NCBI GenBank assembly: GCA_000165345.1
Contig: CM000432.1
Location: forward strand, 256,001-320,000
DNA length: 64,000 nucleotides
Direction of reading: 5' to 3'
Shown: one piece after another, positions 2,341-63,861 of the stretch
How the letters are laid out: every line of letters begins with the position of its first letter
How positions within the stretch are numbered: position 1 is the first letter of the stretch
The notes under the pieces: generated by a model
What the model was told of the DNA's origin: nothing
Database searches by the model: none
The model's input: the letters and a program-made list of their open reading frames with translations, nothing else
Made by a program: the position numbers and the translations under genes

Positions 2341-2888
2341 ACACAAATAAGTATATAAATACAAATATAAATATATATATAAATACATATATGTATTTAT
2401 ATTTATGAATTCATATATATAAACATGTAAGAATCTATTTATTATTAAGCTTATTTTCTACTTGCTCTCAAAAATTCATCAATAGAGCCATCACGTTCTT
2501 TGTTTTGTTTTGATTAGAGTATATTATTATAAGACTATATAATGATTATGCACTTTTTCAAAGGGCCAGGATTAATTATTTATGATAAATTTAAACAAGA
2601 ATTCACTTTTATTTCTACTCTATATTAGGCTTTAAACAGCTCTTGAAAAGAAAAATCACAATTTTGATATGTTTAAACTCTTAATTTCTTTGAATTATAT
2701 CGATCACTCCTTCTTTTAATGTGAATTATCTTAATACTTTAATATTAGTAAGATATTCTTATTTAAATATAAAAAAATAAACTTCTCACAATTTTAAGTA
2801 ATTTATATTTCTTTTCGGTAATTGCATTAATTAATTATTCAACTTGTATATTGAATATATTGAATATGAACATTTTTGTCCAGAGTTA

Positions 2889-2910
2889 CCGCCAAATATT
2901 TGGCGCCAAA
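2889..2910. promoter_or_regulatory. E2F-like palindromic site CCGCCAAATATTTGGCGCCAAA
   Basis: GC-rich inverted repeat (GCCAAATATTTGGC core) in an otherwise AT-rich intergenic region, about 85 bp upstream of the ATG at 2992. It belongs to a recurring TTTGGCGCC / GGCGGGAA family seen throughout the window. Confidence 0.5.
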
Positions 2911-2991
2911 GTCAATAATTCTGTATTTATTTGACAATAAAAAAACAAATCAGGAAAAAAAAAAAAAAAAAGAAAAGTAAATAAGGGACAA

Positions 2992-3873
2992 ATGAGTAAG
3001 TTAAATGAGTTCTTTGAAAAGAAGAAACAAAAGTCGAAAGGTTTGGGTGACTTGAGTAGTACAAAGAAACCAATAATAGGAGGATTGAAAGGTGCAACAG
3101 GTGATCCAAATATATCATCAGTAATATCAGAAGGCAATATAGACGATTGGTCAATTAATACTGATGTAAAAGATACTTCAGACTTTTTAATTTCTAGTAA
3201 GAATTTATCGGTAGATGGTTTGAGAAAACCATCAAATTCTCATATGGTTGTTGCAGTAAAGACATCAAAACCTGATTTTGATTCTAATATATGGAAATCA
3301 AAGACAGGTGATTCTTCGGGAATGAATGGATTATCTTTATCAAAAAAGAATGCCGGAGAAGATGAGGATGGGAAGAATATGAATGATGAGGAGAAGGAAA
3401 AACCTAAAGAAACTTTAAAGTATAATGTAAGAGCAAGGTTAGCAGCAAGAGGACAAAAAGTTGATTTTTTGAATGCAAAGGATGCAATTAGTTCAATGCC
3501 TACGTTAGCAGCAGCAGTAGCCACTACAAACAAGCCAAGAGGTTCAAATTTGACTCCATTAAATCCTGTTGGTACATCAGGAAATGATTCAGATGCATTA
3601 GGTGTTGCAACTTCTACTAATACATTTACAGAGAAACAAGCTACTAGCACAGCTTCAGCAACAATAGTTGAACAAAAGGATAATTCATGTGAAAGTACTG
3701 ATATGAAAAATGAAGAAAAGCATTCAGAAAATGATGAGAAGAGTGATTTGGAAGTTATTAAGCAGTTGAGAAACTGTAATTTATTATATTTTAATAAGGA
3801 GGTTGTATTTAATTGTATTGTAGATATTGAACAAAGCAAATTAAAGTATTCAAATATTGTTAAAGATTTTTAA
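2992..3873 (+). CDS. Hypothetical Ser/Thr/Lys-rich low-complexity protein (293 aa)
   Basis: Intact ATG-to-TAA ORF. An A17 tract lies 20 bp upstream of the ATG, and a promoter E2F-like site is upstream. No recognisable domain. Confidence 0.5.
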   Translation: MSKLNEFFEKKKQKSKGLGDLSSTKKPIIGGLKGATGDPNISSVISEGNIDDWSINTDVKDTSDFLISSKNLSVDGLRKPSNSHMVVAVKTSKPDFDSNIWKSKTGDSSGMNGLSLSKKNAGEDEDGKNMNDEEKEKPKETLKYNVRARLAARGQKVDFLNAKDAISSMPTLAAAVATTNKPRGSNLTPLNPVGTSGNDSDALGVATSTNTFTEKQATSTASATIVEQKDNSCESTDMKNEEKHSENDEKSDLEVIKQLRNCNLLYFNKEVVFNCIVDIEQSKLKYSNIVKDF

Positions 3874-4136
3874 ATGAAATTTAAATTAGTTTAGATTATT
3901 TTTAATTTTATTCAAACAATTATTTATCAATTAATATTTTAGTGTATTTATTCGAATTTTTTTTTTAAATTTATTTCAATGATTTATATATCCGGTACCT
4001 TTATTTAGATCTTGTATACCGGCATTTACGTGGTAATAAAAAAAAAAAAAAATATTCTTTTTTTATTATTGGAAAAAAGTAGATTTTAAAAAAAGAGAAT
4101 TAATGCAAAGAATGATATGAGTAGATTATTACAAGA

Positions 4137-5792
4137 ATGAATCTCGGATCTAAGTACGAGAATTTGGAGATCCCAGAAAATATATATTCTCTTTTTGGAA
4201 GGAAGAAGTTAAAGACTAATAAAAATAGGCAAGTGGGGACCTTTGATACAGCAATTTTTAAGAATAAAAGAATACACCCTGTTTTGCAGAAAGACCATTT
4301 TAAGGCAGGCTTACTTTTTTATAAGAAAAAATATCATGAAGTGGTAACTCCAAGTCTACTTAAGAATGTATCCTTTAATAATAAAAAAAATTCTTCAATG
4401 ATAACTTCAATCTCAAGTCACAAAGGTTTGTTAGCAATAAGTAACACAAAAGGTTCTATTGGGATTTATAACATCAGTGAAGTTCTGAAATACAGAGACC
4501 TGAACAATGGTAAAGGCCCAGAATTAAAATTCCCATTAGGATATGTATTAACAGAAAAAGAACAAAACAGGGTAAAAAGAGGTCGAAGTTTTAAGCTGGA
4601 ACCTGTCAATTACTTAAACCCTGGAGAAAATGAAAATCATAGAGGGGTGATTTCTACTATTCATTTAAGTCCTTTTGATGGACAATTATTTATAACAAGT
4701 GGTTGGGATGGAAATATTAAAATATGGGATACTTTTGATGGAACCTGTGTATTTACTTTAAAATCTCGTAGTAAAATTAACTATTCGGTCATCAATCAAA
4801 CAAATCCAAATATTGTAGGCTCAGCTCTACAGAATGGAAATGTTGGGATTCTAGACTTGAGAATTGGAGGAGAATTCTCTCAGACATTATTTTTGGACAA
4901 AAAAACTACAAATCTCAATTTAGACAGACCAGATTCACCTGTTCTAAGCATAGCTTGGAGAACAGATTCTGAACACATTTTAGCCAGTACATCCCAGAAT
5001 GGTTTTATTCGACTTTGGGATCTCAGATTTGCACAACAACCTTTTCTATATATGAATAGTAATCTAACAGATTGGGAATTTGTACAAGAAACTAATAGTA
5101 TAACCCCTTTATTGATTAGACAACAAATGATCTTGGAGGAAGGGAAAGATATCCATACCAAACAAATTAATCAAGAAAGAGAACAAAAACAAATTTGGAA
5201 ACATCAAAATATGAAAATAGAGCTAAATGAAGACGAAAAGAAATTTCTCAAAATTGGTAAGGAAAGCAATTGTGAGGAAAAAAGTACCCCTAAAGAAAGT
5301 TCTAATGACTTCTTTAATTCTTATCAAAGCCATTTTGGAATTAGTGCACCCAAAACTATTGGCTATGCTCATGAAAGTGGAGTAGGGTTTTGTCAATTCC
5401 TTAAGAATGGTAGATACCTAATCTCCTCAGCTCATGATGGAACCATTAAACTTTGGAATTCTTTAAATGGAAAGAATTGTTATATTAATTATGATAATTT
5501 TGAATCTCAAACTTTCTGGGAGGGAGACGGACTAGTTGAACCAGGAATTGATGACCAAATTCAAAAATACTTTAAAAGGTTTTCAGTAGATTCTGGAGAT
5601 CAAGATACCTTATTTCATCCAAATGGAAATGATATAGGTATTTGGAATATTAGAACAGGTAAATGCTTAAAAAGACTTTCTGCACATATTAATGCTAAAT
5701 CTGTATCTGTAATTCACTTAAGTCACTACTCTAATTTAATGTTTTCGGGAGACCAAAGTGGATTTGTACATATATGGAATACCAGCTATTAG
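4137..5792 (+). CDS. WD40-repeat protein, CSA/ERCC8-like (DCAF family) candidate
   Basis: Continuous 551-aa ORF with WD repeats: HLSPFDGQLFITSGWDGNIKIWDT, ILASTSQNGFIRLWDLR, LISSAHDGTIKLWNSLNG, MFSGDQSGFVHIWNT. The order and spacing resemble human ERCC8 (…SGGSDGVIVLYDL…, [37 protein letters not shown]). The WD40 call is firm. The CSA assignment is tentative. Confidence 0.7.
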   Translation: MNLGSKYENLEIPENIYSLFGRKKLKTNKNRQVGTFDTAIFKNKRIHPVLQKDHFKAGLLFYKKKYHEVVTPSLLKNVSFNNKKNSSMITSISSHKGLLAISNTKGSIGIYNISEVLKYRDLNNGKGPELKFPLGYVLTEKEQNRVKRGRSFKLEPVNYLNPGENENHRGVISTIHLSPFDGQLFITSGWDGNIKIWDTFDGTCVFTLKSRSKINYSVINQTNPNIVGSALQNGNVGILDLRIGGEFSQTLFLDKKTTNLNLDRPDSPVLSIAWRTDSEHILASTSQNGFIRLWDLRFAQQPFLYMNSNLTDWEFVQETNSITPLLIRQQMILEEGKDIHTKQINQEREQKQIWKHQNMKIELNEDEKKFLKIGKESNCEEKSTPKESSNDFFNSYQSHFGISAPKTIGYAHESGVGFCQFLKNGRYLISSAHDGTIKLWNSLNGKNCYINYDNFESQTFWEGDGLVEPGIDDQIQKYFKRFSVDSGDQDTLFHPNGNDIGIWNIRTGKCLKRLSAHINAKSVSVIHLSHYSNLMFSGDQSGFVHIWNTSY

Positions 5793-5815
5793 TACTATTG
5801 TTGAGTAGTTTCTAG

Positions 5816-6691
5816 TCATATTAATCTACTTAGCTGTTGAATTGTATCATTTGGATTTATTACATTATGTCCAATAACTCTTTTATCATTATAGATTTCG
5901 TGATCATTTCCACCAGGGTATGTTTTATCCCCAAAGAAGTGGATTTCATCAAACTTATTCTCAACATGTCTTAAACAATATCTTTTGTCCCATCCCTAAA
6001 TGAAGAAGAAAGTTAAAAACAAATAAAATATCACTAAATTTGAATTCTAGAAATTTCTCGACTTACCTGTGGGAATACATCTATTGATATCTGCCCTCCA
6101 ATAGAATATTGAAGATCAAGATCTGAAAACTCTTTTGATAAATCCTGAATAAACTTTTCTCTGATTCCATTCTTTTTGTCAAGCTCAAAGAATTCTAATC
6201 TCTCATCATAGGAACAATTTCTTCCAATTGGGGAAATATTCAACATTCCTGTTCTATATTCAATAAATGTACCTCTTTTGATTGGAATATCTAGATCTGC
6301 AATGTATCTTAAACAGAAATTGACAAATCTCTTGATGTTATCTTCTCCCAAATGTTTTGAAATGCTTTCTGAACTCACTTTTACTCCTTCATCGTGAAAT
6401 ACAACTCCATTTTCACTAAATATATAGTGACTACAAGCTAGCTCTAAAGATCAATATTAAATAAATTCCATTATAGAATAAAAAAAAAGAAAAAGGAAAT
6501 AAATATACAGTAAACTTACCATTATTCTGTAATTGCTCACATATTTTACTATAATCTGACCCACTAACTACTCCTATCTTAACTTTGCTCTTCGCATTTT
6601 TAAGAGTCATTACCATGTCCTCCATTATTGGTTTTCGTGGTAAAGTGAGGGTCCCATCTAAATCAAACAAAAATAACTTTTTTGAATCCAT
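5816..6691 (-). CDS. Phosphomannomutase (PMM), 3 exons: complement(join(5816..5995,6067..6443,6520..6691))
   Basis: Exon 1 encodes [20 protein letters not shown]...[20 protein letters not shown] (HAD DxDGT motif). Exon 2 encodes ...[30 protein letters not shown]...[70 protein letters not shown]. Exon 3 encodes [59 protein letters not shown]. The whole is collinear with human PMM2. Introns are 71 and 76 nt with GTAAGT donors and tttag acceptors, and phases are consistent. Confidence 0.8.
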
Positions 6692-6824
6692 TTGATTATT
6701 TTTTGTGTGTAAACTCAATTTCTATTGAACATTTATCTTAAAAAATAATAATAATAATAAATATTAAGCTAAATTCAAGCTTATTTATTTTTGCAATTAA
6801 AAATAGTTACCATTTATTTTGATG

Positions 6825-6838
6825 CTTGGCGCCAAAAC
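6825..6838. promoter_or_regulatory. E2F-like site CTTGGCGCCAAAAC in the divergent PMM / MCM7 promoter
   Basis: GGCGCC palindrome flanked by T/A runs, about 225 bp upstream of the MCM7 ATG. MCM genes are classic E2F targets in other eukaryotes. The adjacent CATGCCGGTAT (6838-6850) is a reverse-orientation copy of the ATACCGG motif. Confidence 0.55.
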
Positions 6839-7064
6839 ATGCCGGTATGTAGGCTATTAAGCAAAAAAAGGCCGACCCCACACTACGATTAATATTATTA
6901 AGTAATGAGGATTTGAAATTAAGATAAAGTTGGTGAAAAATTATTAAAAGAAATTGCATTCAAGAGGTAATAAAATCAAAAAAAAGCAACGCTTAGAGAT
7001 CAGTCAGAACAATTGAATTACCCTTAGAAAGCGTATTTTAAAGTCCAAGTTGGAAAGTACTAAC

Positions 7065-11342: not shown

Positions 11343-11366
11343 TGGCGCCAAAGCGCTTTGGCGCCA
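11343..11366. promoter_or_regulatory. Perfect 24-bp palindrome TGGCGCCAAAGCGCTTTGGCGCCA (double E2F-like site)
   Basis: Its reverse complement is identical to itself. Two TTTGGCGCCA half-sites around a central AGCGCT. Sits in the divergent promoter between the membrane-protein gene (start 10892) and the kinase gene (start 11836). The 70-aa ORF 11208..11420 in the track simply reads through it. Confidence 0.6.
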
Positions 11367-13036: not shown

Positions 13037-13498
13037 TCATCTCTTTTTCGTTCCTCGCATACTTATACTGATACTAATACTACTGTTACTACAACAACAA
13101 CTACCACTACAACAACAACTACAACAACAACTACTACTACCACTACAGCAACTACTTCTACCACTACTACCACTGTTACCATTGCTATCACTGCTACCGC
13201 TGCTACTGCTACCACTGCTACTGCTACCACTGCTACTGCTACCATTGCTACTGCTACCATTGCTACTGCTACCATTGCTACTGCTACCATTGCTACTGCT
13301 ACCATTGCTACTGCTACCATTGCTACTGCTACCACTGCTACTGCTACCACTGCTGCCACTATCATATTTGCCTCTCGCTCTTCCCATTCTCCTCCTCATC
13401 TTCCTCCTTTTCATCCTCCTTTTCATCCTCCCCCTCCCCTCTTTTGCTCCCCTTTCCTCTCTTCCAGGATTGTTAATAACTAAAATCATTTCAAGCAT
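13037..13498 (-). CDS. Candidate small basic/Ser-rich repeat protein (153 aa); coding strand uncertain
   Basis: The minus strand has a genuine ATG (complement 13496..13498), an Arg/Lys-rich N-terminus (RMKRRMKRRKMRRRMGRARGK), then (SSSNG)n and Cys/Ser runs, and it fits the convergent gene layout. The plus-strand alternative (poly-Thr, Pro-rich tail) has no ATG (the track start is TTG) and an upstream in-frame stop. Confidence 0.3.
   Translation of the reverse strand: MLEMILVINNPGREERGAKEGRGRMKRRMKRRKMRRRMGRARGKYDSGSSGSSSSGSSSNGSSSNGSSSNGSSSNGSSSNGSSSNGSSSSGSSSSGSSSSGSSDSNGNSGSSGRSSCCSGSSSCCCSCCCSGSCCCSNSSISISISMRGTKKR
13196..13360. repeat. 15-bp tandem repeat ACC(A/C)(T/C)TGCTACTGCT x about 11, with 6 perfect consecutive copies at 13241-13330
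   Basis: Read directly from the sequence. Embedded in a broader ACT/ACC/ACA/GCT triplet-repeat tract (about 13040-13370). Confidence 0.9.
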
Positions 13499-14168: not shown

Positions 14169-22476
<8,308 letters not shown>

Positions 22477-24315: not shown

Positions 24316-24699
24316 ATTAAGGCAGGATAGAGACTCATGTCTGAGCCCGCCATTTATCAAGTTTTAATATAATGATCAATTTTATATTTATTATTATAGT
24401 TATTTTCGATACGAAAAATTATCACAAATTCATTAATTTACTATAATTTTAGAAAAAAATCGACTATTTGTTTAATTAATTAATTACATATACTTATTAC
24501 CTCTAGATTCTACAATTTTCTATATTATTATTCATAATGTTAATAATAAGCATGCTCGCTTTTGCGTAAACATTTGTTTACATGTCAGCTCTACACCTAA
24601 TTATCATTCGCTCTCTTTTATTCTTTTCTTCTTTTTTTATTCTTCTTTTCTCTATCGATTTATACTTATACTTGTACTATAGTTTTTTATCATATTAAA

Positions 24700-26742: not shown

Positions 26743-27579
26743 TTATTTAATTTTTTTAAAAATAATTCCTCTTTTAATTTATAACGAAAAAAAAAAAAAT
26801 TAGAAGTAAATGTTAATTCTAATAAAAAACCTCTTTGACCCTTAATTTTAATTCAATGCTTTATACTTAATTAATTTATTATCATTAATTTCACTATTGA
26901 CATATAATTTTTTTCAAAGTATTAGAACAAAATATTTATTTTATTTTATTTTATTTTTTTCAATTGATCAACTCTTTCTGTAATTAATTAATCAAAATAT
27001 TTTTTTTTTTAATAAAATAGTTGTAAAAAAAAGATATTTATATTTATTACACTGATCCCTTCTATATTAACGCATTTACTTCACATATTAAATATATTTC
27101 TTTGTCTTATTATTATTCTAATTTTTTTATTCCTATCTATTTAAAATTAATTAAAAAAAAAAATCTTTAGTGGTCAAAAAATGACGTGGCAATATTAAAT
27201 ATTTTTTTAAAAATTAATTTAAATAATTTTATGTGGACGAAGATTCTCCAATAAAATATTTTTTTTAATTCAAGATGGATTATATGGACATATTAATTAA
27301 CAAGTTGCAATAGTTCCTATACCGGTGTTTGACAATTTACATGCAGATTTGCATGCACACCACAACAAAAAAATTGACCTAAAAAAATATCTAAAATATA
27401 AAAGTTAAAGAGGAAAAAGGAAAGCTTTCCAATTTTTTCTTCAAGAAGAAGGAATTAATTTGAACTAATTTTGGTAAGTAAAAATTTTTTTTAAAAATTA
27501 ATATTACTTTATTTTTTAATTCGCAAATGTATATAATCATGTGCAATTTATATCAATTAAAAAAAAAAAAATTAAACTT

Positions 27580-30816: not shown

Positions 30817-30843
30817 TTTGGCGGTACTTGCGCCGCCACATGC
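30817..30843. promoter_or_regulatory. Tandem E2F-like sites TTTTGGCGGTACTTGCGCCGCCACATG
   Basis: GC island in the divergent promoter between the PDI gene (start 30583, -) and BUD13 (start 30946, +). Confidence 0.5.
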
Positions 30844-31479: not shown

Positions 31480-32102
31480 TTTCATTTAAGTTAAAAACTA
31501 TTTTATTTTATTTTATTTTTTAATCATTAATCCATTATAATTAACATAAATTTATAATTTTTTCTTGTCCACATGAAAAAATAAATATGAATTCCGGACA
31601 CGTAATTTAATTACTTGCATTTGCATGTTGCATGCAAATTTTGGAAAAAATGGTCCACATAAAAAATATAGCAAATAAATAATTCGTTTTTTAAAGAACA
31701 AAATACAAATTAAAACTCTATTAAGAATTTTTTTAATATCTATTTTTTTTTTATTATTTTTTTTTTGAGTTAATATTAAATCAATACTATTTAAGCCAAG
31801 TAAAACTATTAATGTGAAATTATTGGGTAAAAGGTAATAATAAAAAAAAATTGATACTATTTAAACAAATTAAGTGCTGAAGAAATACAACTATACATAA
31901 AATAATTTAATATTAATAGTGATAAAAATAGTAAATACTGTCAAAATATTTCAATTGAAAGTATAATGCACATTTATTTATAAATTATTAATTAATATAT
32001 GTATATATGCATATATAAATATATTAACATATATATATCTATATATATATATATTAATATGTATACAACAGGAAATAATTTAATTTGGAAGACTAGTTAA
32101 AA

Positions 32103-34922: not shown

Positions 34923-35844
34923 ATGAAGAATTTAATTGATATGAAAGATAAAGATGGAGATTTAATTAAAGGTAATTTTATCAGGAACAAATGTTGAATA
35001 AAATTTCATTAAAATATATTAAAAATAATAAAACAAAAACTTTAAACTACCTCCCACTATCTATTTTCTAAAATTATTTTTATTAATGCTTAAAACTCAA
35101 AAATAATAATAATAATATAATTAAATTACACAGCCAACAAAGATTCATTCATACAAGTAATTGTGGAAATGCACCAAAAACTAGGCGAAACTTTTGAATC
35201 AAACTTTAATAAAATAAGGTAAGTCTTAAATTCTTTAAAATAAAAGAAGAATTTTCTTCCTTTATTTTTTTTTAACTTTTATACACGTCATTAATTTATT
35301 GCATGCAATGACTACATGTACTTTCCCGCTCTTAGAGAAATTAATTACAAAATTAATCAAGATATTGAACAAATACAAGTAAGTTTTTTTTTATTTAAAA
35401 CAAACCTATTTAGTTAAAAAGGAGTTTGTTTTAAATAAAATGTTGATGGTAATGAATAGTATATTGATATAGAAAATTCTAAAAGGAAAGGAAGAAACAA
35501 AAAGAACTACTCCAGTAATATCTTCAACATAACTATAAGTATTAATGGCATTTGTGAGCCTTTATAACTTTATTATGTAAAAAAAACAGTTTTCTATATC
35601 AATATATTACCGCCTTACAACTATTACTCGAACAAATCTTATTCACTTACCATTTTCTTCCCTTAAACATTTTATTAAATTACTTGAAACTATAAATTAT
35701 TTATCTAAATTAAAGAACCTAATCACTAATGAAGAAAAAATCCAGAAAGATCTTCAAGAAAGAAACTCGGTCATTAATAATGTACTGAATGACTTTATGA
35801 ACACTATGCAGGCTACCATTAATGATGGGCCATCCAATAAATAG
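34923..35844 (+). CDS. Tentative small 4-exon coiled-coil protein (about 101 aa), join(34923..34971,35134..35218,35336..35378,35716..35844); absent from the ORF track
   Basis: ATG exon MKNLIDMKDKDGDLIK ends in G|GTAATT. The next exon follows ACACAG and ends AATAAAATAAG|GTAAGT. The next follows CTCTTAG and ends ACAAG|TAAGTT. The last follows AATTAAAG and runs open to a TAG: NLITNEEKIQKDLQERNSVINNVLNDFMNTMQATINDGPSNK*. Summed exon length is 306 nt, a multiple of 3. The 337-nt last intron and a possible missing internal exon are uncertain. Confidence 0.35.
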
Positions 35845-40081: not shown

Positions 40082-40105
40082 CATGCGCATGCAAATGCAT
40101 GCAAT
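40082..40105. promoter_or_regulatory. Clustered CATGCGCATGCAAATGCATGCAAT (overlapping GCATGC / TGCATGCA palindromes)
   Basis: Lies about 670 bp upstream of the ApiAP2 ATG, in the only intergenic region serving it. TGCATGCA is the core bound by several apicomplexan AP2 domains (established knowledge). A GGCGGGAA-type site TATGGCGGGAACC (40136-40148) lies 30 bp away. Confidence 0.45.
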
Positions 40106-40291
40106 ACCTACAATGTGGGCAAAAATAATTCCACGTATGGCGGGAACCTGACAAAATTATAAATATTTAAAACAAGGTGCTTGTTTAATTGAAAATAGAC
40201 TAAAGGAAGAGAAAATAATACAGGAAAAAGCTGAAAATCCCCGTGATAATAGTTAAAATTTTAACAATTTGCGATTCTAAGCTAGAATTTA

Positions 40292-41829: not shown

Positions 41830-41862
<33 letters not shown>

Positions 41863-41957: not shown

Positions 41958-41977
41958 GTTTTGGCGGGCTCATGCAC
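41958..41977. promoter_or_regulatory. E2F-like site GTTTTGGCGGGCTCATGCAC
   Basis: Divergent promoter between Sec12 (start 41632, -) and MBL-fold gene 1 (start 42153, +). Confidence 0.45.
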
Positions 41978-43903: not shown

Positions 43904-44412
43904 TTGTCCACATTAAAAATAATAATAACGATTACGTGTGCAATTAAATTCAATATTTAAATCAAGTGCATGCGCATATGCATGTTATTGGACAATTTTT
44001 TTCATGCACAAAAAAAAAAAAAAAATGCAATTTTTTAAAAAATTAGTTAAGAATTAAGTTATTTTTAGGAATGGAGAAATCAGTTGAAGATTTTATTATG
44101 AAAAATTTCTTGATAAAATTGAAAAAAAGAAATGAATAAAGAATATACAAATGTATTGGAATAATTAAATTTTAAGTCAAATGTAATTGAAAGAAAACCA
44201 ATTATTAGCTAATAATTGGAATTATTTGAGAGTCGAAAGATATCGTAAATTTTAACTTGGGAAATTCAATACTATTTTTATCAACGATCTCTTGAACAAA
44301 ATCATGTGAATACTTACAATCAATACTATAAAAGAATATATTCTCAGTATTTATTATATTTGCGCAAAAATTTATTGAATCTTTGATTGATTTTGAATTA
44401 ATCGAAATTGAT

Positions 44413-45342
44413 TCATTTGGGACAATTGGGAAAGATGAGTATATTAATAAGTTGAATCGTTTTTAAAAATGCTAAAGTTTCTTTTGGAATAATAGAATAT
44501 CTTGGAATAATGCAAATCAATTTTTTATCACTTGCATATTCAATACAATATCCAGAAGAAAGTTTATTATCTGAATCAATAAAAAATAATGATGTAATTT
44601 TTATTTCATTGGAATATTGAATAATCACTGGATTCAAAGTTAAGTTTTTATCAATTTCATCACTTATCTCAATATCATTATTCAAGCTAATATAATCATT
44701 AAATTTGGATATTGAATCAATTTTAGTAACATCTGGAGAATTTCTTGGATCAAGTATGTTAAGTTGAACACAACCAACTTTTGTTTTTGATTTTAAATCA
44801 TCTTTTAAAGAATAATTAATTATGTAACTATACCAGTCATTAAATTTGTTTAATGCAGAAGATGTAAAATATATTGGTACTCTAATTTTTGGCTCATAAA
44901 ATACTATTCCATCGTTTCCCACAGGTCTTTCATATTTTTGAACTTCTCTTGTTTCATCTATTCCATTAAAAGATGATTCATCCGAACCCATACAAAAAAT
45001 GGCATCCAATCTATTAATATTTGCAGGTATTGCATATTCTAGCATTGATATTCTAAATGTTGAGCCAATTTCAAAAAGAAATGTATCATGGCGTTCACTT
45101 TCAGAACTATTTAAATTACTAACTGGATTCTTAATTAAAATAGAAAATGGATTACGTACATTTTTATTCTTCATCTTAATTGACTCTTGACATATACCAC
45201 AAAATGGGTCGTTTCCTTTATTAACATTATCTATATTTTTAAATACATGCTCAAGATTTGGCGTACCTTGTTCGGTACCAGAACCTAAGAAAAGAATAAA
45301 GCTACTCATATCTCTTGTTGGCTTATGAGAATGTGCATGCAT
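44413..45342 (-). CDS. MBL-fold-like pseudoenzyme (paralog 2 of 42153..43217), metal-binding histidines lost
   Basis: MSSFILFLGSGTEQGTPN parallels paralog 1 KLPCGILFVGTGVSSSVP. FLFEIGSTFRISML...LDAIFCMGSDESSFNG aligns with ILIDLGKSFREAAI...IDSVILTHFHNDAVAG, so the HxHxDH position reads MGSDES. Two candidate ATGs (45342 or 45309). Confidence 0.6.
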   Translation of the reverse strand: MHAHSHKPTRDMSSFILFLGSGTEQGTPNLEHVFKNIDNVNKGNDPFCGICQESIKMKNKNVRNPFSILIKNPVSNLNSSESERHDTFLFEIGSTFRISMLEYAIPANINRLDAIFCMGSDESSFNGIDETREVQKYERPVGNDGIVFYEPKIRVPIYFTSSALNKFNDWYSYIINYSLKDDLKSKTKVGCVQLNILDPRNSPDVTKIDSISKFNDYISLNNDIEISDEIDKNLTLNPVIIQYSNEIKITSLFFIDSDNKLSSGYCIEYASDKKLICIIPRYSIIPKETLAFLKTIQLINILIFPNCPK

Positions 45343-45461
45343 GTGGGGAGGATATTCGTATTTAAATCTTCCCTTTTTTTTAAATCTCCAGAATCAAAAA
45401 CTTAGCATTCCATCTGTATTACGACTTAATTGGATTAACTTATAGGTTAAAATCAGTTGAA

Positions 45462-48581: not shown

Positions 48582-48600
48582 CCTGGCGCTGGCGCCAGAG
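48582..48600. promoter_or_regulatory. E2F-like direct repeat CCTGGCGCTGGCGCCAGAG
   Basis: RlmN / RPT2 divergent promoter. Further sites are TATGCGCGCCAAATG (48810-48824) and GAGGGGGCGGGCAAATTTT (48855-48873). Confidence 0.45.
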
Positions 48601-49144
48601 CTATGAATACCAATATATTTACTATATTAAACTTGACTATAGATATTTTCAGCTTTGCTATTTACATGAAAGCACCTATTATTAATATTTAAGAACAAAG
48701 AAACTTTCAAAGTTCCAAAAAATTTATTTGATTATCTTTTTAATATTTTTTCATGCAATAATTATTAATAATAGTGATTGTTTAGGGCTTTTTAAAATTT
48801 AAGAGCAATTATGCGCGCCAAATGTTTGATCCATTAAATTATTGGGTATAAGAATGAGGGGGCGGGCAAATTTTAAGGGGGTATATTATATAAATAATTT
48901 ATTGGGGCAAAAGTAATAATAATAAATAAATGCGTTAAATTTTAACTGTATTGTTATAATAGCATTAATAAAGTACAAGAAGATTTCTAAGGTACAAATT
49001 TCAATAAGGTAATAATTTTGAGGAGAAGAGTAATAAAAGGAATCTTTTGGAGAGACTGGCAATTCAAATTAAGGCAGATTTGAATATAATACACACACAA
49101 TAAAATATATGCTCAAGTAAGGTAAAGGTAGGTTAGAGAAAAGT

Positions 49145-50482: not shown

Positions 50483-50500
50483 GCAACTTTTTCATAGACA

Positions 50501-50514
50501 TTTTCCCGCCTTTG
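50501..50514. promoter_or_regulatory. Canonical E2F consensus TTTTCCCGCCTTTG in a 3' convergent intergenic region
   Basis: Matches TTTSSCGC. Located 20 bp after the RPT2 stop. A second site GTTTTGGCGCCAAC is at 50866-50879. Both lie between the 3' ends of two convergent genes, which is unusual placement. Confidence 0.35.
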
Positions 50515-50913
50515 TCACTTCTAACTTTTATTATCAATTTAAGTAAAATAATGAATCGGGATATGTAACAATGAATAAGTAGGTCTAATATATATCTGTT
50601 AGTTTTATTTTGAGAAAGGATATATTTGTAGAATTTTTATTTTCTATTAAAATCTCTGGAAATTTTATTGGAATATGATTTTGTCTTAGTATAGTCACTC
50701 TAACTATTTCTCCCTCCTCACGCTTAAACAAGCATGAATTATATACTTAAAATAATTGTAATGAAGTGACGATAATAAGTAAATTCCCCTAACTTAAGAT
50801 GCCAGTTTTGATTCTAATCATTTTATTTGCACGAGTGTGTGGGGCCAGTGGAAATGAAAACGCATGTTTTGGCGCCAACTGATATTTTATTTTATTCTAA
50901 TATTGCATTTTAA

Positions 50914-51475: not shown

Positions 51476-51495
51476 AGAGTTTGGCGGGCTTTTCC
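51476..51495. promoter_or_regulatory. E2F-like site AGAGTTTGGCGGGCTTTTCC
   Basis: Divergent promoter between the 51246 (-) start and the 51629 (+) start. Confidence 0.45.
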
Positions 51496-53389: not shown

Positions 53390-53407
53390 TTAAGGCGGGA
53401 AAACCCC
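53390..53407. promoter_or_regulatory. E2F-like site TTAAGGCGGGAAAACCCC
   Basis: GGCGGGAAAA is the classic E2F core. It lies about 370 bp upstream of the UFD1 ATG. The adjacent TCTATACCGGCATTTC (53418-53433) is another ATACCGG motif copy. Confidence 0.5.
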
Positions 53408-53667
53408 ACATGTCATTCTATACCGGCATTTCTTGCAATACGTATATGTTCACATGCAATATAATATTTATGTGGAAAGAAATACAAAAGAACATAGTTT
53501 AGCAAATAAATCAAATAAAATTTATTATTAATATTTTCAACAAACTATTGTTTTTGTTTTTTTTAAATATTAATTAGTAAAAAAAATTAGTATAAAGATT
53601 TTTATCTATTTTAGAATTAACTTTTATATTATTTATATAATAAAAATAGTAATATTTACCAAATAAA

Positions 53668-56496: not shown

Positions 56497-56528
56497 TTGG
56501 GCGCCACATGTTTGTTGCCGCCAATTTT
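56497..56528. promoter_or_regulatory. Paired E2F-like sites TTGGGCGCCACATGTTTGTTGCCGCCAATTTT
   Basis: About 135-165 bp upstream of the RRS1 ATG (56363). Confidence 0.45.
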
Positions 56529-56997
56529 TTTATATAGAATATATATTTTTGCATGTTTATGGCTAAATGGAACAAAAAGCAAAGCCAGAATTTACAATAA
56601 TATTTGCTAATGATATTAAATAATGCTTATAGAAAATAGTTTAATGCTCACGAAAATTTGGAGTCAATTGTTTATTTAAACTTTACTAGAATAGAGAAGA
56701 TAAATTCTAGATAGATGAAATATAGGAAATCTACTTTAAAAAGGTAAATAATGTTGAATTGGTTAATTGTTCAATTTTGAACCATTACATGTGAGAAATC
56801 CAAAATAAATCGATTTCAAGCACTAATTTATATTAGGCGATTAATAGAAGGAAAAAGAAACACTAAATTAATAATTAGAAAATTTACTACCTATTTAAGC
56901 TAATGAAACAGTGTTTGTAAGAATTGAATACATATTCATTTCTGTTATGATAAAAATATAGAAAAATATTATTGCATTTTTCTATATTTTCAATATC

Positions 56998-57381
56998 TTA
57001 ACACTTAGCCTTTTGGATCTTTCTATATCTAATGATAGCAACATTCTTCAAATCTGGACGGGATGAGATTTGATTTTTGATTGTCTTCTTTGCTTGTTTA
57101 AAATTATTGGAGAGATTTACCTTAGAAATGAGTTTCTTTGGGCATCTAATAGTACTTGATCCAGTGTTCTTCTTGGTTATCTTGGCATTCTTAACAAGCT
57201 TTCCATTGGAATTTGGAACTAAATCCATGCTAATTGATCTTCTTGCAGCAAGACCTGAGTACTTTAAGGTGTTCAAGTTCATTATGTTGAATGGTTCAGA
57301 GGTAAAAGTGAAGCCATTGTTCTTCTTAATGAAAGAAGTGTTTTTCTTAACACATTGCCATAAAAGTTCAGTTGAAAACAT
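56998..57381 (-). CDS. RPL28: 60S ribosomal protein L28e
   Basis: MFSTELLWQCVKKNTSFIKKNNG...TSEPFNIMNLNTLKYSGL...RPDLKNVAIIRYRKIQKA is collinear with human RPL28 ([43 protein letters not shown]...RPDLRMAAIRRASAILRS). Confidence 0.85.
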   Translation of the reverse strand: MFSTELLWQCVKKNTSFIKKNNGFTFTSEPFNIMNLNTLKYSGLAARRSISMDLVPNSNGKLVKNAKITKKNTGSSTIRCPKKLISKVNLSNNFKQAKKTIKNQISSRPDLKNVAIIRYRKIQKAKC

Positions 57382-57772
57382 TTTTAACTATTAAATATAA
57401 TATAATATTACAGATATTTATTCAGAAGAATGTGTTAAAAAATAAGGAAATACTTTTTTTTTTAACTTAATATGACCTTAATTGTTTTTTTAATTTTTTT
57501 TCCAGTGACAAGAAAAAAAGCTACTTTTAATCAATTAATTTTTTTATTTTTAATTAAATTATTTACTATTAATCTCAAATATTCAGCTAATTAATTTAAT
57601 ATAATACATTTATAAATTATAAATTATTACTAATACTAATACTTCAATATATTTCTACGTCTCAAGTCAATTCAAAACAATATTATTATAGTTTAATTAT
57701 TTACTTTTTTAAATTGGGTATAGAATGCAAACAAAATATATTAATAATTTATCGACCATTAATAATTACGTA

Positions 57773-57799
57773 AAAGGCGGCAAAAATGACCGCCAAAAG
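57773..57799. promoter_or_regulatory. Inverted E2F-like pair AAAGGCGGCAAAAATGACCGCCAAAAG
   Basis: About 390 bp upstream of the RPL28 ATG, and immediately 3' of the 57823 gene. Confidence 0.4.
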
Positions 57800-57822
57800 T
57801 TTAATTAATATTATTAAATTAG

Positions 57823-60591
57823 TTATTTATATAATGCATGGAAATTATTTGGGAATACAATTTTTTGTTGAACAGCATCAATAGTTATAGGAGTTGGTAC
57901 TGGAGCAACATATTGAAGGTTGTTGTTTGTATTAGTATTTGGTACTATATTGATATTACCATTTAAAAGTGTAGTGTTAGTTGTGTTTTGAGTTGCATTC
58001 ATATTAAAAAAACTGCTATTGCTTCTACTATTAAGTAAGTTTGCCGGGTAGTACTGGTTGTTATTATTATTACTGGTATTATTCAATAGAGGTGTTGTGT
58101 TACTCCTTATTAAATTCGTATCAGTTGTTTTTAAATTATTAGCTTCTATATAGTTTGTAGGTTGCAAGTCTAAAAGTTTGACTTCAGGAGAATAAATTAA
58201 ATATGAATCTGTTTCATTGCTAGCCACATTCTTATTGATTGTGTTTATGTTCTTTTCTGTATTGCTACTCGCTTGAAATTCATTTATTGAATTAATTGTT
58301 TGAATTGTTGCTTTATAAGCTCTTACAATTGGGGCATTAGTTCCGTAATTGGGCTGATTATTTGATTCAATTATATTAGAATGTTCTATTTTTTGATCAT
58401 TTAAATATTTATCCACTGTACTGCTTTTGTTGCTAATGATAAAGGTTGAATTATTCACTAAATTTGTTGTTTTAACTTTAGGTACAATAGTTTCTAAATC
58501 ACTATTCATTTTTCTTAGATTTCTTTTGCTAAGAATATCAGCAGATATAATTGACTCATTATTCATGTATGAATCATCAAAAATACCCCCTTTTAAATTA
58601 CTCATTGAAATCAAATTTGTTTTTGAGTTGGTTCTATAAAAACTATTCGAGTTTGAATTATTATAATCATCAACTAATCTTTCTTTTGATTTTGTCCTTT
58701 TTTTTGATAGGCTATTAACTGTTGGTTTAGTAAAGTTAGATAATTGATCATTAACTTTGATATGCTCCTTTGAACTGGTTTTTGAATTATTAAAATCTGT
58801 ACCTTTGCCAGATTTAACTAAGTTCTTTCCATTTATTCTTTCGTTTTCTTGAACATTCTTCTGATCAGAAATTGTTTTATTTACTTTTTTTTCTGTTGTT
58901 TTATAATTTTGTAGTGATAAATTTGGTCTAGTATTACTCTTCTTAATCTTTTCTAATTCAGAAACATTCTTACTGATATTAGATTCATTTTTATGACAAT
59001 CATCTTTGTTATTTACGCATTTATCGTCTTCAATTTCTTCAGTAATTTTTTTAATATCATTGGTTGGTTTAGCAGTTTTCGTTATATCTTTATGGTCATC
59101 CTCGCTTTTATTATCGCTTTGTTTTTGAATAATAGCTAGTTCGTTATCATTTATCCGTTCATCAAAACTAGTTTCATATTGAGTTTTACTTTCATCCTTT
59201 TCAATCAATTCACATTCCGCATCTACTGGAGTAATAACCAAATGATGGTTATTAATTTGCTCCACTGGGTCTCGTGGAGTTGATATTGCGCTTTTAATAT
59301 GCTTACATTGAGAAAGGATATTCAATTTTGAAGGAATAGATGACCTCAACTCATGGAATCTTTTCTCTATTCCTGAAATAACTGAATTTTTCGGAACTTC
59401 TGTCTGATCGTTGTTGATTCTAAGTAATTCGGCACCACCTTTTAATATATTATTATTAATATTATAATCATGGCGCCTGATGTGTGCATGCATATTTAAA
59501 TAATTATTTTGATTATCGATTTCTTTATTAATAAATAATACTCGATTATCTTGTGATAATTCTTTAATATTTAATAGATTGGTATTGATTTGATCGTCTG
59601 TTAAAGCATTGTTATTTGGAAGTTCGCCACTATTCATTGAATCAAAAGTGTTATCTTCTTGATGAATAAGATTACCATATTTGCTTTTTAACTTCATTCT
59701 AAGATTAATAATTGAGTTATCTAATTGATCTTGTAATGAAAATAAAGTAAAGCTTAGTTTGTTGATTTCTTGATCTTTCTTATTAATTAAAAAAAAATCT
59801 CTATTAATTTGTTCCTTTAATTGTAAATTCTCCATATGTATGAGATTTACTTTCTTTCTTAATACAGATTCTAAATAGAAAGAATCTTCATCTTTTTTAT
59901 TAAGTGTATCAACATCTTCGATATGTCTTTGTAACAAATCATTCATTCTAAGAGTAAAGAAATGAACTCTATTTCTATTAAGCATATCAGTAATCATTTC
60001 TTTTTCCAATAAGAATTCATTATTTAAACTAACTCCTTTCTTTAATATCCTTAAATCCAATAATAACAATTTCAAGTAATCGTTACTTTTAAATATTCCA
60101 GAATTATTATCAGAACTAATCAATTGATTATTCAATAAACTTGAATCCAATAATTTCTTATCATTTTGCCTTATTCTCTCGATAAGAATATGTTTGTTTT
60201 CTTCATTACAATTCAATTCATTAAATAAATGTGTTAATTCACTATAATTTCTTTTAATTTCTAGCAAACTTTCATAGTTTTCCTTCTGAGTTTCATTTTT
60301 TGTTAGCTCTTCATTCAAAATTTTCAAAGTCTCTTTTTCGTTGTTTATATCATATTTCTCTAAAAGAGCTATAAAATTACTATTGTTAAATAATTCATAT
60401 ATTTTGCCATTAATTTTATCCTCCAACTGAATATATTTATCTGTCAGATTCATTCTACTTTCATTTTTATCATTAGCTTTCATTTCTTCCATTTTTGTGA
60501 TTTCTGAATCTTCTTGATTCTTTTTTTTAATCTTTGGTGTATCATATTCAATGATATCTTCTTCGTGAACTATTAATTTCTCTGTATTCAT
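57823..60591 (-). CDS. Hypothetical coiled-coil / low-complexity protein (922 aa)
   Basis: Real ATG. The N-terminal 350 aa are heptad-rich (KE/LN repeats), followed by an Asn/Ser/Thr-rich tail. No domain recognised. Confidence 0.6.
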   Translation of the reverse strand: MNTEKLIVHEEDIIEYDTPKIKKKNQEDSEITKMEEMKANDKNESRMNLTDKYIQLEDKINGKIYELFNNSNFIALLEKYDINNEKETLKILNEELTKNETQKENYESLLEIKRNYSELTHLFNELNCNEENKHILIERIRQNDKKLLDSSLLNNQLISSDNNSGIFKSNDYLKLLLLDLRILKKGVSLNNEFLLEKEMITDMLNRNRVHFFTLRMNDLLQRHIEDVDTLNKKDEDSFYLESVLRKKVNLIHMENLQLKEQINRDFFLINKKDQEINKLSFTLFSLQDQLDNSIINLRMKLKSKYGNLIHQEDNTFDSMNSGELPNNNALTDDQINTNLLNIKELSQDNRVLFINKEIDNQNNYLNMHAHIRRHDYNINNNILKGGAELLRINNDQTEVPKNSVISGIEKRFHELRSSIPSKLNILSQCKHIKSAISTPRDPVEQINNHHLVITPVDAECELIEKDESKTQYETSFDERINDNELAIIQKQSDNKSEDDHKDITKTAKPTNDIKKITEEIEDDKCVNNKDDCHKNESNISKNVSELEKIKKSNTRPNLSLQNYKTTEKKVNKTISDQKNVQENERINGKNLVKSGKGTDFNNSKTSSKEHIKVNDQLSNFTKPTVNSLSKKRTKSKERLVDDYNNSNSNSFYRTNSKTNLISMSNLKGGIFDDSYMNNESIISADILSKRNLRKMNSDLETIVPKVKTTNLVNNSTFIISNKSSTVDKYLNDQKIEHSNIIESNNQPNYGTNAPIVRAYKATIQTINSINEFQASSNTEKNINTINKNVASNETDSYLIYSPEVKLLDLQPTNYIEANNLKTTDTNLIRSNTTPLLNNTSNNNNNQYYPANLLNSRSNSSFFNMNATQNTTNTTLLNGNINIVPNTNTNNNLQYVAPVPTPITIDAVQQKIVFPNNFHALYK

Positions 60592-61140
60592 TTATTCTCG
60601 AACTTAATACTAGTATTCAAGCAAATAGACTCATATAGATCAATATAAATATAAATACATATACATGTATATATCTGCTACATATATATGTGTATATTTA
60701 AGATTATTATCTACTTATTTACCAGTTATTTATCAAATTGTATGTATATTGTTGGCTTAATTATACATTTAAAAAAAAATAGAAATTTTAATATTCTCTT
60801 TAGTCTTCTGTTTAAAAAAGTAAGCCAATTTCACGCATTAATGAGCTAAATAACTGTAAAACTTTTCTCTTGTCTTGTGGATCTATTCTTCCTGCAAATA
60901 TGAATATAAATTCTATGGATTTACTTATTTACCAATTATTTTAACTTAAATATAAATATCTCCCCACTTATATTGAGTTGTGCTTCTAAATAACAATTAT
61001 ACTATTAATGTATAGATCTTTTCTAAAAGATCGAAAGATAATAATAAGAAATAATTACAGTTAACTCTTTATCTTTAAATAAGATTTTATTACATAAATT
61101 AATCCTCACATAATATAAATGCAATTCTCCTCTCTAAATA

Positions 61141-61172
61141 CCGCCAAATGTGAGTTGTTTGCCCGCCAAATG
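61141..61172. promoter_or_regulatory. Tandem direct repeat CCGCCAAATG x2 (E2F-like) in a long divergent promoter
   Basis: CCGCCAAATGTGAGTTGTTTGCCCGCCAAATG. Another site CATTTGGCGCCACTAA is at 61541-61556. These serve the 60591 (-) and 61805 (+) genes. Confidence 0.45.
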
Positions 61173-61804
61173 TCCATTTTGAAATTCAATTCATCTAATA
61201 TAACAAAAATTAAAAATAAAGAAAAGCACTAATAATTAGATTATAATTGTTTTTCTTAAATTAATGTAAAGTAGATCAATTAGTGAAAAATAAAATACAT
61301 TTATACTACTCGACAAAATAATTATTTTTTTCTTGAATTTTTTTTTTTTTTTTTTTTGTAAAAATACTAATTATTTAAAAAAAAAGAAAAAAAAACAATA
61401 TTTTTAAACTTTATTTTAGTTATTTATTATTTAATTCTAGTACTATACATGAAAATAAACTTTAAATGTTAAATAATACTTATCTATTCATGTGGAAATT
61501 ATTCATGTTGTTTCCATATTTTTTATTTTTAGCACACAAACATTTGGCGCCACTAATTATTTAGTTGTATAATTTGAATTTATTACGGAAATATAAGTAG
61601 TCGATACTAATAAAGAAAATGAAAAAAAAAAATCCCATTAGTTTGTTTTGGAATTAATTATTAAATATGAGATTTTAACTTATCTTTTTCTTCTGTTTAA
61701 ATATAATTACTTGAACTGTATATTTTACATATATATATATATATATATATATATCTTCTATTAAAACGAAATATACCATAAGGGATTTGATAAAGTAGGA
61801 AAAA

Positions 61805-62624
61805 ATGAAGAATGAAGATCAATCAATAGAATTCTCCTTTACAAAACCACTCTATTTTGTTCTATATGACGTAATCGCAATTCCAGAAATTAACGAAAAT
61901 TTACATTTAAAATTTATTGAAGATCTATATTTGAAATTTAAATTAGGTCATAAAACAGTAGATGAAGCTCACGAACAAATAAGCTGTCAGTATACATTTA
62001 ATGTATATGAAATCTTATACATAGGAGAAAAATATGGGCATTACGATATCTTTTTTAAAGTGAAAAATTTAGTTGACGATATTAATAATACTTTTAGAAT
62101 TGTAAGTTAAATAATACAACATTATCTTTACTAAAATAAAATAATAATACTATCAGACATATGAAAATATATCTAATATTTACAATAAATTTCAGTTTAA
62201 TCAAGAAAATCTAATTCTCTTAAAGTATATAATATATAAATACTTTAAAGAGAAAAACTATATAGTTAAAGATGGAATGAAATTTGGAGTTGATTATATA
62301 TTATATCATAAAAGTCCATCTCTAGTCCATGGAAAGCATTGTATATTAATTTGTAAATTCACATATGAAGAAAAAGAAAAGAAAAAAGAAAATGGCAATA
62401 ATGATTATTGTTATAATAAAAGTGATCTATCAAAATATGATGGATATGAAGAAATTATTTACAATAATAAAAAATATATGGTAAAATTTCCTATTATTAA
62501 TTATAAAAAAATTATTAATTTATCGAGATTATGTGAGTCTGTTTCAAAAAAGCTTATTCTTGTTGAATATAACTCCAAAAATGATGAAATCCAAAGTCTA
62601 GAAATTTCCAGATTTTCTAGTTAA
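61805..62624 (+). CDS. tRNA-splicing endonuclease catalytic subunit (Sen2/Sen34 family), 2 exons: join(61805..62101,62196..62624)
   Basis: Exon 1 ends ...TTT AGA ATT|GTAAGT. A 94-nt intron ends aatttcag. Exon 2 FNQENLILLKYIIYKYFKEKNYIVKDGMKFGVDYILYHKSPSLVHGKHCILI carries the endonuclease C-terminal catalytic signature (G.KFG.DFLLY..P...H). The two track ORFs (61805..62110, 62277..62624) are in the same frame once the intron is removed. Confidence 0.75.
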
Positions 62625-63461
62625 TTACTTATATTTTTGTTTAAACCTTAAAACATCTTCTTTAGTTAATTTTTTCTTATTATTAATTAATATATCATCC
62701 ATTCTCTCCTTATTCTTCTTCTCTTCTGCTTTAAATTTATCGTGAATCTGTTTATCAGTAAATTCTGGAAAGACTGATTTTACCAGCATTAAATCTGTAC
62801 CAAATAGTGATAAGGCATCATAAAATTTATTGGTTTGTTCTGTTGACCATCTTTTACCCTTTGTTCTTTTATAAGCACCAGAATATGGTTGTAGGGATGT
62901 ACCAGCCATATTCTCATTAATATATACTCTTCCCTCCATTAGTCCAAGCCAATCCATTTGTTTTCCAGAACTATTGTTTAATAAATTTTCTTCTAAAATG
63001 ATATCTCCTTTACAATCTATTGATAATTTTGAATTACTATCACCATTCAATTTATCCATTGAAAATAACTCACTCAAAAAACTATTATTTGAATTATTTT
63101 CACCATTAATTCCTTCAAATAAATTTGAAGTTTTATTCTTATCCTCCAACTTTTTGTTTTCTTGTCCCGAATTTCCATCCAATAAGTAATTTAATAAGTC
63201 ACTTCCATTATTCTTAGTATCTGAAATTCCTAAACCTGATTGATTACTTGAAAAAAAAGTATTATCATTTGAATACCTGTCGCCAAAGCTATCATTTTCT
63301 GTTATACTGGTACTATTATTACTACCATCCAAATTTAATCCATCTTTTTCGCTATTCTGTTCATTTTGTTTTCTTTTTGATCTCCTCTTTCTATAAGCTG
63401 TTTTGATTACAATACTCCATAAAGTAGCATTATCTCCTCTTGTTGAATCATTTCCTGCCAT
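62625..63461 (-). CDS. SANT/Myb-like domain protein, probable TFIIIB B-double-prime (Bdp1)-like
   Basis: C-terminal KRWSTEQTNKFYDALSLFGTDLMLVKSVFPEFTDKQIHDKFKAEEKKN matches the Bdp1 extended SANT (kWs.eEte.Fy.AL..fGtDF.li..lFp.Rt..QIk.Kfk.Eek). The stop codon directly abuts the stop of the tRNA endonuclease gene on the other strand. Confidence 0.55.
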   Translation of the reverse strand: MAGNDSTRGDNATLWSIVIKTAYRKRRSKRKQNEQNSEKDGLNLDGSNNSTSITENDSFGDRYSNDNTFFSSNQSGLGISDTKNNGSDLLNYLLDGNSGQENKKLEDKNKTSNLFEGINGENNSNNSFLSELFSMDKLNGDSNSKLSIDCKGDIILEENLLNNSSGKQMDWLGLMEGRVYINENMAGTSLQPYSGAYKRTKGKRWSTEQTNKFYDALSLFGTDLMLVKSVFPEFTDKQIHDKFKAEEKKNKERMDDILINNKKKLTKEDVLRFKQKYK

Positions 63462-63844
63462 CTAATTACAATAATAACAATAATATTCGTAATATTAATA
63501 AACTTTTTTTTAATAATAATAAATAAACAATAAAATAAAACGACTAAACTTATTTTATTTACAATTCAATGTTAAATTAACTTTCTATAAACAACTTGAA
63601 AATCTTAACCTCATCTATATATTAGTGTTTAGCCGTATATTTAGCTTCAAATACACTTCAATTTTCGTCCTTAATCTTCTTATTATAGCTAAAATCCTAT
63701 ATTATTTAATAAATTTCATCTTTTTTCCTGCTTTTGATTTTTACTTTTTTCTTTCTCCTTATTTTAATTTATTATTCCCCAATTTATTTAATAATACTGA
63801 TATTAATAAATAATAATTATTTATATATTAATTACACTTCGAGA

Positions 63845-63861
63845 CTTTTGGCGCCATTTCC
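63845..63861. promoter_or_regulatory. E2F-like site CTTTTGGCGCCATTTCC
   Basis: About 385 bp upstream of the 63461 (-) ATG. Confidence 0.4.

Follow-up and report, generated by a model that had tools for sequence, protein, structure and literature searches.

An E2F-like box at the promoters of a 64-kb segment of Cryptosporidium parvum chromosome 4

Genes and GC-rich boxes of the window

The stretch of DNA analysed here (the window) comprises 64,000 nucleotides of contig CM000432.1 in GenBank assembly GCA_000165345.1 (positions 256,001 to 320,000), and carries in most of its promoter regions a GC-rich box resembling the binding site of E2F/DP transcription factors. Over most of its length, its DNA matches CP029783.1 (GCA_031892065.1), with 100% identity over 7.3 kb and 99.99% over 20.7 kb, while a contig of C. 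hominis is 97.3% identical. Identical proteins are named as those of C. parvum Iowa II, with chromosome 4 tags such as CPHLJ_4g1110 for an ApiAP2 gene and 4g1220 for RRS1. An earlier prediction made from the letters alone (the original prediction) had suggested Cryptosporidium as the source, and the window is indeed part of C. parvum chromosome 4.

Pfam scans of the open reading frames (ORFs) identified MCM7, the ApiAP2 protein, a proteasome Rpt ATPase, UFD1, SF1, RRS1, RPL28e, Bud13, eIF3g, a PDI-like thioredoxin and URB1/Npa1, among others, a gene content typical of an apicomplexan housekeeping region. No E2F_TDP domain was found by these scans among the proteins of the window. A search of the entire window against Rfam and for tRNAs gave no match, and the large spacers are not explained by a known RNA family. 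The gene map, carried over from annotated identical C. parvum assemblies, defines 33 intergenic regions. The GC content is 25.8% for the window, 27.4% for the genes (47 kb) and 21.6% for the intergenic DNA (17 kb); the mean intergenic AT content of 78.4% is slightly lower than the value above 80% given originally.

Motif matches were counted on both strands (strand-hits) and compared with 100 dinucleotide-preserving shuffles. GGCGSS (S, C or G) gave 39 strand-hits, corresponding to 27 distinct sites, against 1.75 ± 1.40 (maximum 5) in the shuffles. The shorter GGCGS was observed 53 times with 5.9 expected, and TTTGGCGCCAAA, with up to two mismatches, gave 8 matches with 1.45 expected. After overlapping matches had been merged, 40 GGCG[C/G] clusters remained. 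The original prediction of at least 25 such sites is borne out, a GGCG(C/G) core being found at every position it named, and the 24-bp perfect palindrome it placed at 11343 is present as well (Table 1).

When 6- to 8-mers of the intergenic DNA were scored against a second-order Markov expectation, and poly-A/T and (AT)n were set aside, three families stood out. The E2F-like family, which ranks first together with TGCATGC, includes TGGCGCC (17 observed, 0.28 expected), TTTGGCG (20 and 1.17) and TGGCGCCA (8 and 0.06); the other two are TGCATGC and ACTGCTACC, both considered below. None of the three was found enriched in the coding DNA of the window.

A positional matrix of 42 oriented half-sites gave the consensus T-T-T-G-G-C-G-S-S-A-A-A, with T at -3, -2 and -1 in 28, 25 and 35 of the 42 and A at +6 to +8, corresponding to TTTGGCGSSAAA. 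As judged by its sequence, this is TTTSSCGC, the consensus of E2F/DP, whichever side it is read from. Positional information ends about 8 nt out from the sites.

The boxes are restricted to promoters. Nineteen of the 40 clusters lie in divergent and 10 in tandem intergenic regions, with three more in convergent spacers (32 intergenic in total) and eight in genes. Density per kb is 2.5 in divergent regions, 1.25 in tandem regions, 1.9 in all intergenic DNA and 0.17 in genes, though the latter are richer in GC. The claim that virtually all sites are 5' intergenic therefore holds for the 29 clusters in promoter-bearing regions but is mildly overstated, the other 11 of 40 lying in genes or convergent spacers. 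At least one site is present in 11/11 divergent and 8/12 tandem regions, so that 30 of the 34 genes have a box in the 5' intergenic region, in agreement with the earlier statement that almost every promoter is marked. The nearest annotated ATG is 87 to 1174 nt away (median 282), and the spacing is not fixed. The palindromic GGCGCC was found in divergent regions at 7 of its 9 intergenic sites, as compared with 12 of 23 for asymmetric sites, a trend only, from a hand count of a small sample without a significance test. Asymmetric boxes in single-site tandem promoters are C-rich on the gene strand in five of six cases, a sample too small for a claim.

The genes served include those for proteasome, splicing, ribosome biogenesis, ribosomal protein, PDI-like and Myb functions. 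The box is not restricted to G1/S genes, and the use beyond S-phase genes put forward originally is apparent from the many housekeeping classes recognised by Pfam, in agreement with the literature (PMC3734150).

Conservation at orthologous promoters

With the UFD1 orthologues as anchors, the syntenic loci (21 kb) were retrieved from C. ubiquitum, C. felis, C. xiaoi and C. andersoni, and the number of boxed promoter regions was compared with first-order Markov simulations of each region. Gene order is kept at these loci. Boxes were found in 7/9 promoter regions of C. ubiquitum, 9/11 of C. felis, 8/10 of C. xiaoi and 7/12 of C. andersoni, where 0.6 to 1.9 were expected, and in 8/9 at the same locus of C. 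parvum, with 0.75 expected. Orthologous promoters retain the box across a range of species that runs from C. parvum to C. andersoni, a gastric species.

A well-conserved instance is 5' of UFD1, where TTTCCCGCC is present in all four intestinal species and C. andersoni has CCGCC. When the SF1-UFD1 spacer is aligned across four species (mean identity 57%), the longest fully invariant run of columns is TTTCCCGCCT, directly preceded by a conserved ACATGTGGGG. The inverted GGCGG...CCGCC pair 5' of RPL28e and the four boxes of the divergent Rpt/radical-SAM promoter are each present in three species (C. parvum, C. ubiquitum and C. felis). As read from these comparisons, the boxes are under purifying selection at orthologous promoters in the five species. 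The UFD1 locus of Plasmodium gallinaceum, included as a negative control, has no sites; it is a weak control, with an intergenic GC content of only 9%.

A CATG lies within 12 nt of 8 of the 32 intergenic E2F-like sites, with 2.1 expected (P ~5e-4). The sites concerned include those at 6828, 30830, 41963, 50871, 51483 and 56500, and at 53394-53420, which reads ACATGTGGGGTTTTCCCGCC on the minus strand. The combination of ACATGTGGGG and TTTCCCGCC 5' of UFD1 is kept in four species, and such arrangements may represent a composite element of a CATG/G-box and an E2F-like box.

Table 1. Positions of E2F-like boxes and TGCATGCA clusters in the window, with their gene context
Feature	Position (strand)	Context
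GGCG(C/G) cores named in the original prediction, 5' part of the window	2889/2902, 6828, 11344/11360, 13757, 22807, 27584, 30820-30837, 41963, 45466	
GGCG(C/G) cores named in the original prediction, 3' part of the window	48585-48596/48815/48861, 51483, 53394, 55307, 56500/56518, 57776/57790, 61141/61163/61546, 63850	
CCGCC (2889-2893) and perfect TTTGGCGCCAAA (2899-2910)	2889-2910	divergent, poly(A) polymerase (-) / 293-aa gene (+)
CTTGGCGCCAAA	6825-6836	divergent, phosphomannomutase (-) / MCM7 (+); ATGs at 139 nt and 234 nt
24-bp perfect palindrome TGGCGCCAAAGCGCTTTGGCGCCA, two GGCGCC boxes	11343-11366	divergent, 399-aa gene (-) / kinase (+)
GCGCCAAA	13757-13761 (-)	410 nt 5' of URB1/Npa1
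CCCGCCAA	22806-22811 (-)	448 nt 5' of eIF3g
Orphan CCCGCC	24346-24351 (-)	convergent spacer, 34 nt 3' of eIF3g stop; function uncertain
ATGGCGGTAA	27584-27588 (+)	divergent, DUF7899 (-) / zf-MYND (+)
Pair TTTGGCGG and GCGCCGCC	30820-30837	divergent, PDI-like thioredoxin gene (-) / Bud13 (+)
Lone weak CCGCC, doubtful member	35610-35614 (-)	1174 nt 5' of 136-aa gene
GGCGGGAAC	40139-40144 (+)	724 nt 5' of ApiAP2 gene 4g1110; adjoins TGCATGCA cluster 40085-40103
TTTTGGCGGGC	41963-41968 (+)	divergent, WD40 (-) / metallo-beta-lactamase (+); orthologous promoter boxed in C. felis, C. xiaoi
GCGCGCCAAA	45465-45470 (-)	divergent, 367-aa gene (-) / Pex22-like (+); orthologous promoter boxed in C. ubiquitum, C. 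xiaoi
Four boxes: 48585-48596 GGCGCTGGCGCC, 48814-48819, 48861-48866 GGGGGCGGGC	48585-48866	divergent, radical-SAM (-) / proteasome Rpt ATPase (+)
GGCGGGAAAA (minus-strand reading)	50505-50510 (-)	convergent spacer, 24 nt past Rpt stop
Orphan TTTGGCGCCAAC	50868-50879	end of 431-bp geneless spacer
TTTGGCGGGC	51483-51488 (+)	divergent, 110-aa gene (-) / 135-aa gene (+)
GGCGGGAAAA (TTTCCCGCC on gene strand)	53394-53399 (+)	370 nt 5' of UFD1
TTTTTGGCGGGCAAA	55307-55312 (+)	226 nt 5' of splicing factor SF1; orthologous promoter boxed in 5/5 species
Pair GGCGCC and GCCGCC	56500-56522	139-157 nt 5' of RRS1 (4g1220)
Inverted pair GGCGGC ... CCGCC	57776-57794	~400 nt 5' of ribosomal protein L28e
Three boxes: 61141-61145, 61162-61167, 61546-61551	61141-61551	divergent, 922-aa gene (-) / 101-aa gene (+)
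TTTGGCGCCATT	63850-63855	divergent, Myb (-) / Rtf2 (+); Rtf2 start just beyond window; GGCGCC also in C. felis
TGCATGCA clusters	27340-27357, 31622-31636, 35300-35307, 40085-40103, 43967-44008, 45334-45343	

The E2F/DP interpretation and its rivals

The boxes of the window and their interpretation have already been published for C. parvum and are not new. Motifs 3 and 4 of Oberstaller et al. 2013 (BMC Genomics 14:516; PMC3734150) comprise [C/G]GCGC[G/C], GGCGGG and TGGCGCCA, the forms taken by the boxes described here. In that study, the E2F-like motif was the most abundant upstream motif in C. parvum, extending beyond cell-cycle genes, and was found 5' of 163 of 200 expression clusters (2,379 genes), with targets in DNA replication, translation, RNA processing, secretion and glycolysis that include genes for ribosomal proteins and ribosome biogenesis; RRS1 (cgd4_1220) is in its cluster table. 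As cited in PMC3734150, the motif had been seen before by Bankier et al. 2003 and in a de novo motif study of 2007, and ref. 22 of that paper is cited for the motif at subsets of DNA-replication and glycolysis genes. According to a 2025 preprint (10.1101/2025.01.17.633476), E2F stands out above all other motifs in regulatory peaks of sporozoite ATAC-seq (assay for transposase-accessible chromatin with sequencing), of which more than half are annotated as bidirectional promoters. The window and the published family share organism, sequences, upstream position and breadth of targets and show no essential difference, the window being a local 64-kb sample of a genome-wide pattern. The additions made here are modest, namely a genus-wide footprint at orthologous promoters, promoters with TGCATGCA only, and one conserved orphan box.

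Two E2F genes (cgd1_1560 and cgd6_1430) and two DP genes (cgd7_3650 and cgd8_1850) are annotated in C. parvum (10.1101/2025.01.17.633476; PMC12246861). Among the apicomplexans studied, E2F/DP is kept only in Cryptosporidium (PMC3734150; PMC12246861), as had also been stated in the original prediction. The canonical E2F/DP site of animals and plants (Zheng et al. 1999, as cited in PMC3734150) and the box of the window both span 12 bp with a symmetric CG core and T/A runs, and MCM7 is among the targets in both systems. However, canonical E2F acts mainly on G1/S targets and is gated by the retinoblastoma protein (Rb), whereas the box stands at most promoters of every functional class in the window, and no Rb homologue has been reported (PMC3734150).

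It is very likely that the boxes are the published Cryptosporidium E2F-like cis-element, TTT-GGCG-(C/G)(C/G)-AAA, occurring one to four times in most promoter-bearing regions of the compact genome and acting through E2F/DP. The match to the consensus and the restriction to promoters both favour the E2F/DP-type reading proposed originally. We infer the identity of the binding protein and its activating or chromatin-opening role. Most likely, one of the two E2F proteins would pair with one of the two DP proteins, all of the winged-helix type, and the heterodimer would bind the CG core, a step drawn from the literature and the known structure of E2F-DP on DNA. E2F/DP would then activate housekeeping and early-asexual genes in a general way from promoter-proximal positions, or open their chromatin, and would often serve the two genes of a divergent pair. 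Specificity would be added by stage-specific factors, for example ApiAP2 proteins on TGCATGCA or the G-box, or these would replace E2F/DP at the few unboxed promoters.

Several points weigh against this interpretation. Most of the regulatory components are without functional validation (2025 review, PMC12246861). As no apicomplexan orthologue of the retinoblastoma protein has been reported (PMC3734150), that is, no Rb-type pocket protein, regulation must differ from the canonical pathway. Clusters with E2F motifs share no common expression profile (PMC3734150), as would suit a factor of general use better than a specific regulator. Eight sites are inside genes and three in convergent spacers, and one of the latter, at 50505-50510, reads GGTAGG in C. 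hominis. Since it is not conserved even there, some instances of the box are probably non-functional, and this site is probably fortuitous. Finally, literature searches for Cryptosporidium E2F/DP found no binding data from electrophoretic mobility shift assays, protein-binding microarrays, chromatin immunoprecipitation or CUT&RUN (cleavage under targets and release using nuclease).

This last point also leaves room for the main rival, in which the boxes are genuine promoter elements but are read by some other protein, for example a C2H2 zinc finger, an ApiAP2 domain outside the tested set or one of Myb type, the likeness to E2F being coincidental. ApiAP2 and Myb-like proteins are encoded in the window itself, and half of the sites are of the GGCGGG type, superficially similar to Sp1 GC boxes. 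However, the GGGGCGGGG form of the Sp1-type box, with G-runs on both sides of the CG, fits only the site at 48861, GGGGGCGGGC, most flanks being T- or A-runs, and the full consensus with these flanks together with the palindromic GGCGCC fits E2F/DP and not Sp1. The C. parvum AP2 domains tested on protein-binding microarrays bind TGCAT, CACACA and the G-box, and E2F was classed as a non-AP2 motif (Oberstaller et al. 2014, PMC4117751). In addition, overrepresentation of the motif together with E2F/DP genes has been reported for no apicomplexan other than Cryptosporidium, and the absence of sites from the Plasmodium control locus points, though weakly at its GC content, in the same direction. A different factor is hence considered unlikely.

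A structural or boundary role, in which the boxes are nucleosome-excluding GC islands, insulators or terminators that need no sequence-specific activator, would suit the variable distance to the ATG and the sites at 57776/57790, 24346, 50505 and 50871, which lie near the stop codon of the upstream gene. Nevertheless, the base-by-base conservation of a specific 10-mer and the sharp consensus argue for sequence-specific recognition, and no site is present in 8 of the 10 short convergent spacers, the places that would call for a terminator or boundary; this role is therefore thought very improbable. Scarcely any credence can be given to an origin by chance, from base composition or from relics of a dispersed repeat. 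Only the small size of the core speaks for it, while none of the 100 shuffles reached the observed counts and sites are found again at the orthologous positions of five species. As the flanks are uninformative past about 8 nt, the boxes are not copies of an extended dispersed repeat.

A wider proposal can be made tentatively, to which we give slightly less weight than to its opposite. For the genus as a whole, the box may represent an ancestral, default element of promoters, serving an Rb-free, chromatin-opening activator beside a small class of promoters with TGCATGCA only, and conserved orphan boxes in geneless spacers, such as 50868-50879, may mark unannotated transcripts or a relic promoter. 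As has been published, Cryptosporidium appears, alone among apicomplexans, to run most promoters on an E2F-type box. Both a genuine regulatory signal and the source organism were recoverable from raw sequence alone. Well-conserved sites suited to binding tests include TTTCCCGCC 5' of UFD1 and the double palindrome of 24 bp at 11343.

Unboxed promoters, orphan boxes and assembly irregularities

The four tandem regions without a box are hyp293>WD40, Bud13>hyp555, hyp367>hyp121 and hyp101>tRNA endonuclease (upstream gene > downstream gene). The second enriched intergenic motif, TGCATGC (14 observed, 0.52 expected), belongs to the ApiAP2 'AP2_1' motif TGCATGCA, which is like the E2F-like box in being a strongly enriched intergenic palindrome, but has another sequence and is bound by AP2 domains (PMC4117751). 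Clusters of it are present in two of the unboxed promoters, Bud13>hyp555 and hyp367>hyp121, and the spacer of the latter has a GCATG/CATGC core in all five species (C. parvum, C. ubiquitum, C. felis, C. xiaoi and C. andersoni). This points to two classes of promoter, one with the E2F-like box and one with TGCATGCA only. Inside the 922-aa gene, at 59472-59492, a GGCGCC is followed 8 nt on by TGCATGCA, a possible internal or antisense promoter.

The 101-aa ORF and the 115-aa tRNA-intron-endonuclease ORF (61805-62624) are two genes in C. parvum and a single gene of 237-263 aa in C. ubiquitum, C. felis and C. xiaoi. Given the single-gene annotation in these species, the spacer between them is probably not a promoter, and its 166 bp (62111-62276) may be an intron or result from an annotation split.

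The orphan box at 50868-50879 is kept in C. hominis and C. ubiquitum, 38-47 nt beyond the stop of the neighbouring gene. It lies in an unusually long convergent spacer of 431 bp (50483-50913), in which no ORF was found. The equivalent slot of C. andersoni is occupied by a 115-aa gene of the Yippee/Mis18 family (L016, 12122-12469) with boxes upstream, and a remnant of this gene was sought in the C. parvum spacer and in C. ubiquitum, C. felis and C. xiaoi, where neither an ORF nor a tblastn match was obtained. The orphan box may be the start of an unannotated, possibly non-coding, transcript or a relic promoter of a lost Yippee gene. E2F-like motifs have been reported 5' of antisense and other long non-coding RNAs in C. 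parvum (PMC7840661), and promoters of such RNAs are a plausible explanation for orphan boxes in convergent spacers.

The window also contains irregularities of assembly and annotation. Between 12652 and 13041, about 35 single-base deletions and about 8 substitutions separate it from the otherwise identical CP029783.1, and as a result the kinase ORF is cut to 317 aa, as compared with the 392 aa annotated. The source assembly seems to be of low quality in this stretch, which adjoins a tandem repeat. The repeats at 13088-13354 have period lengths divisible by three, and one of them is a 15-nt unit, ACTGCTACCATTGCT, present 12 times; their copy number differs in CP029783.1, where the region is about 200 bp longer, and a 298-aa minus-strand gene is annotated there in one assembly and not in another. 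The ACTGCTACC k-mers were rejected as a motif, being explained by the 15-nt tandem repeat (13172-13354), which is unrelated to the E2F-like box. One extra T at 19712 relative to CP029783.1 splits URB1/Npa1 into overlapping ORFs (14169-19757 and 19729-22476), and in other assemblies this gene encodes a single product of ~2,768 aa.

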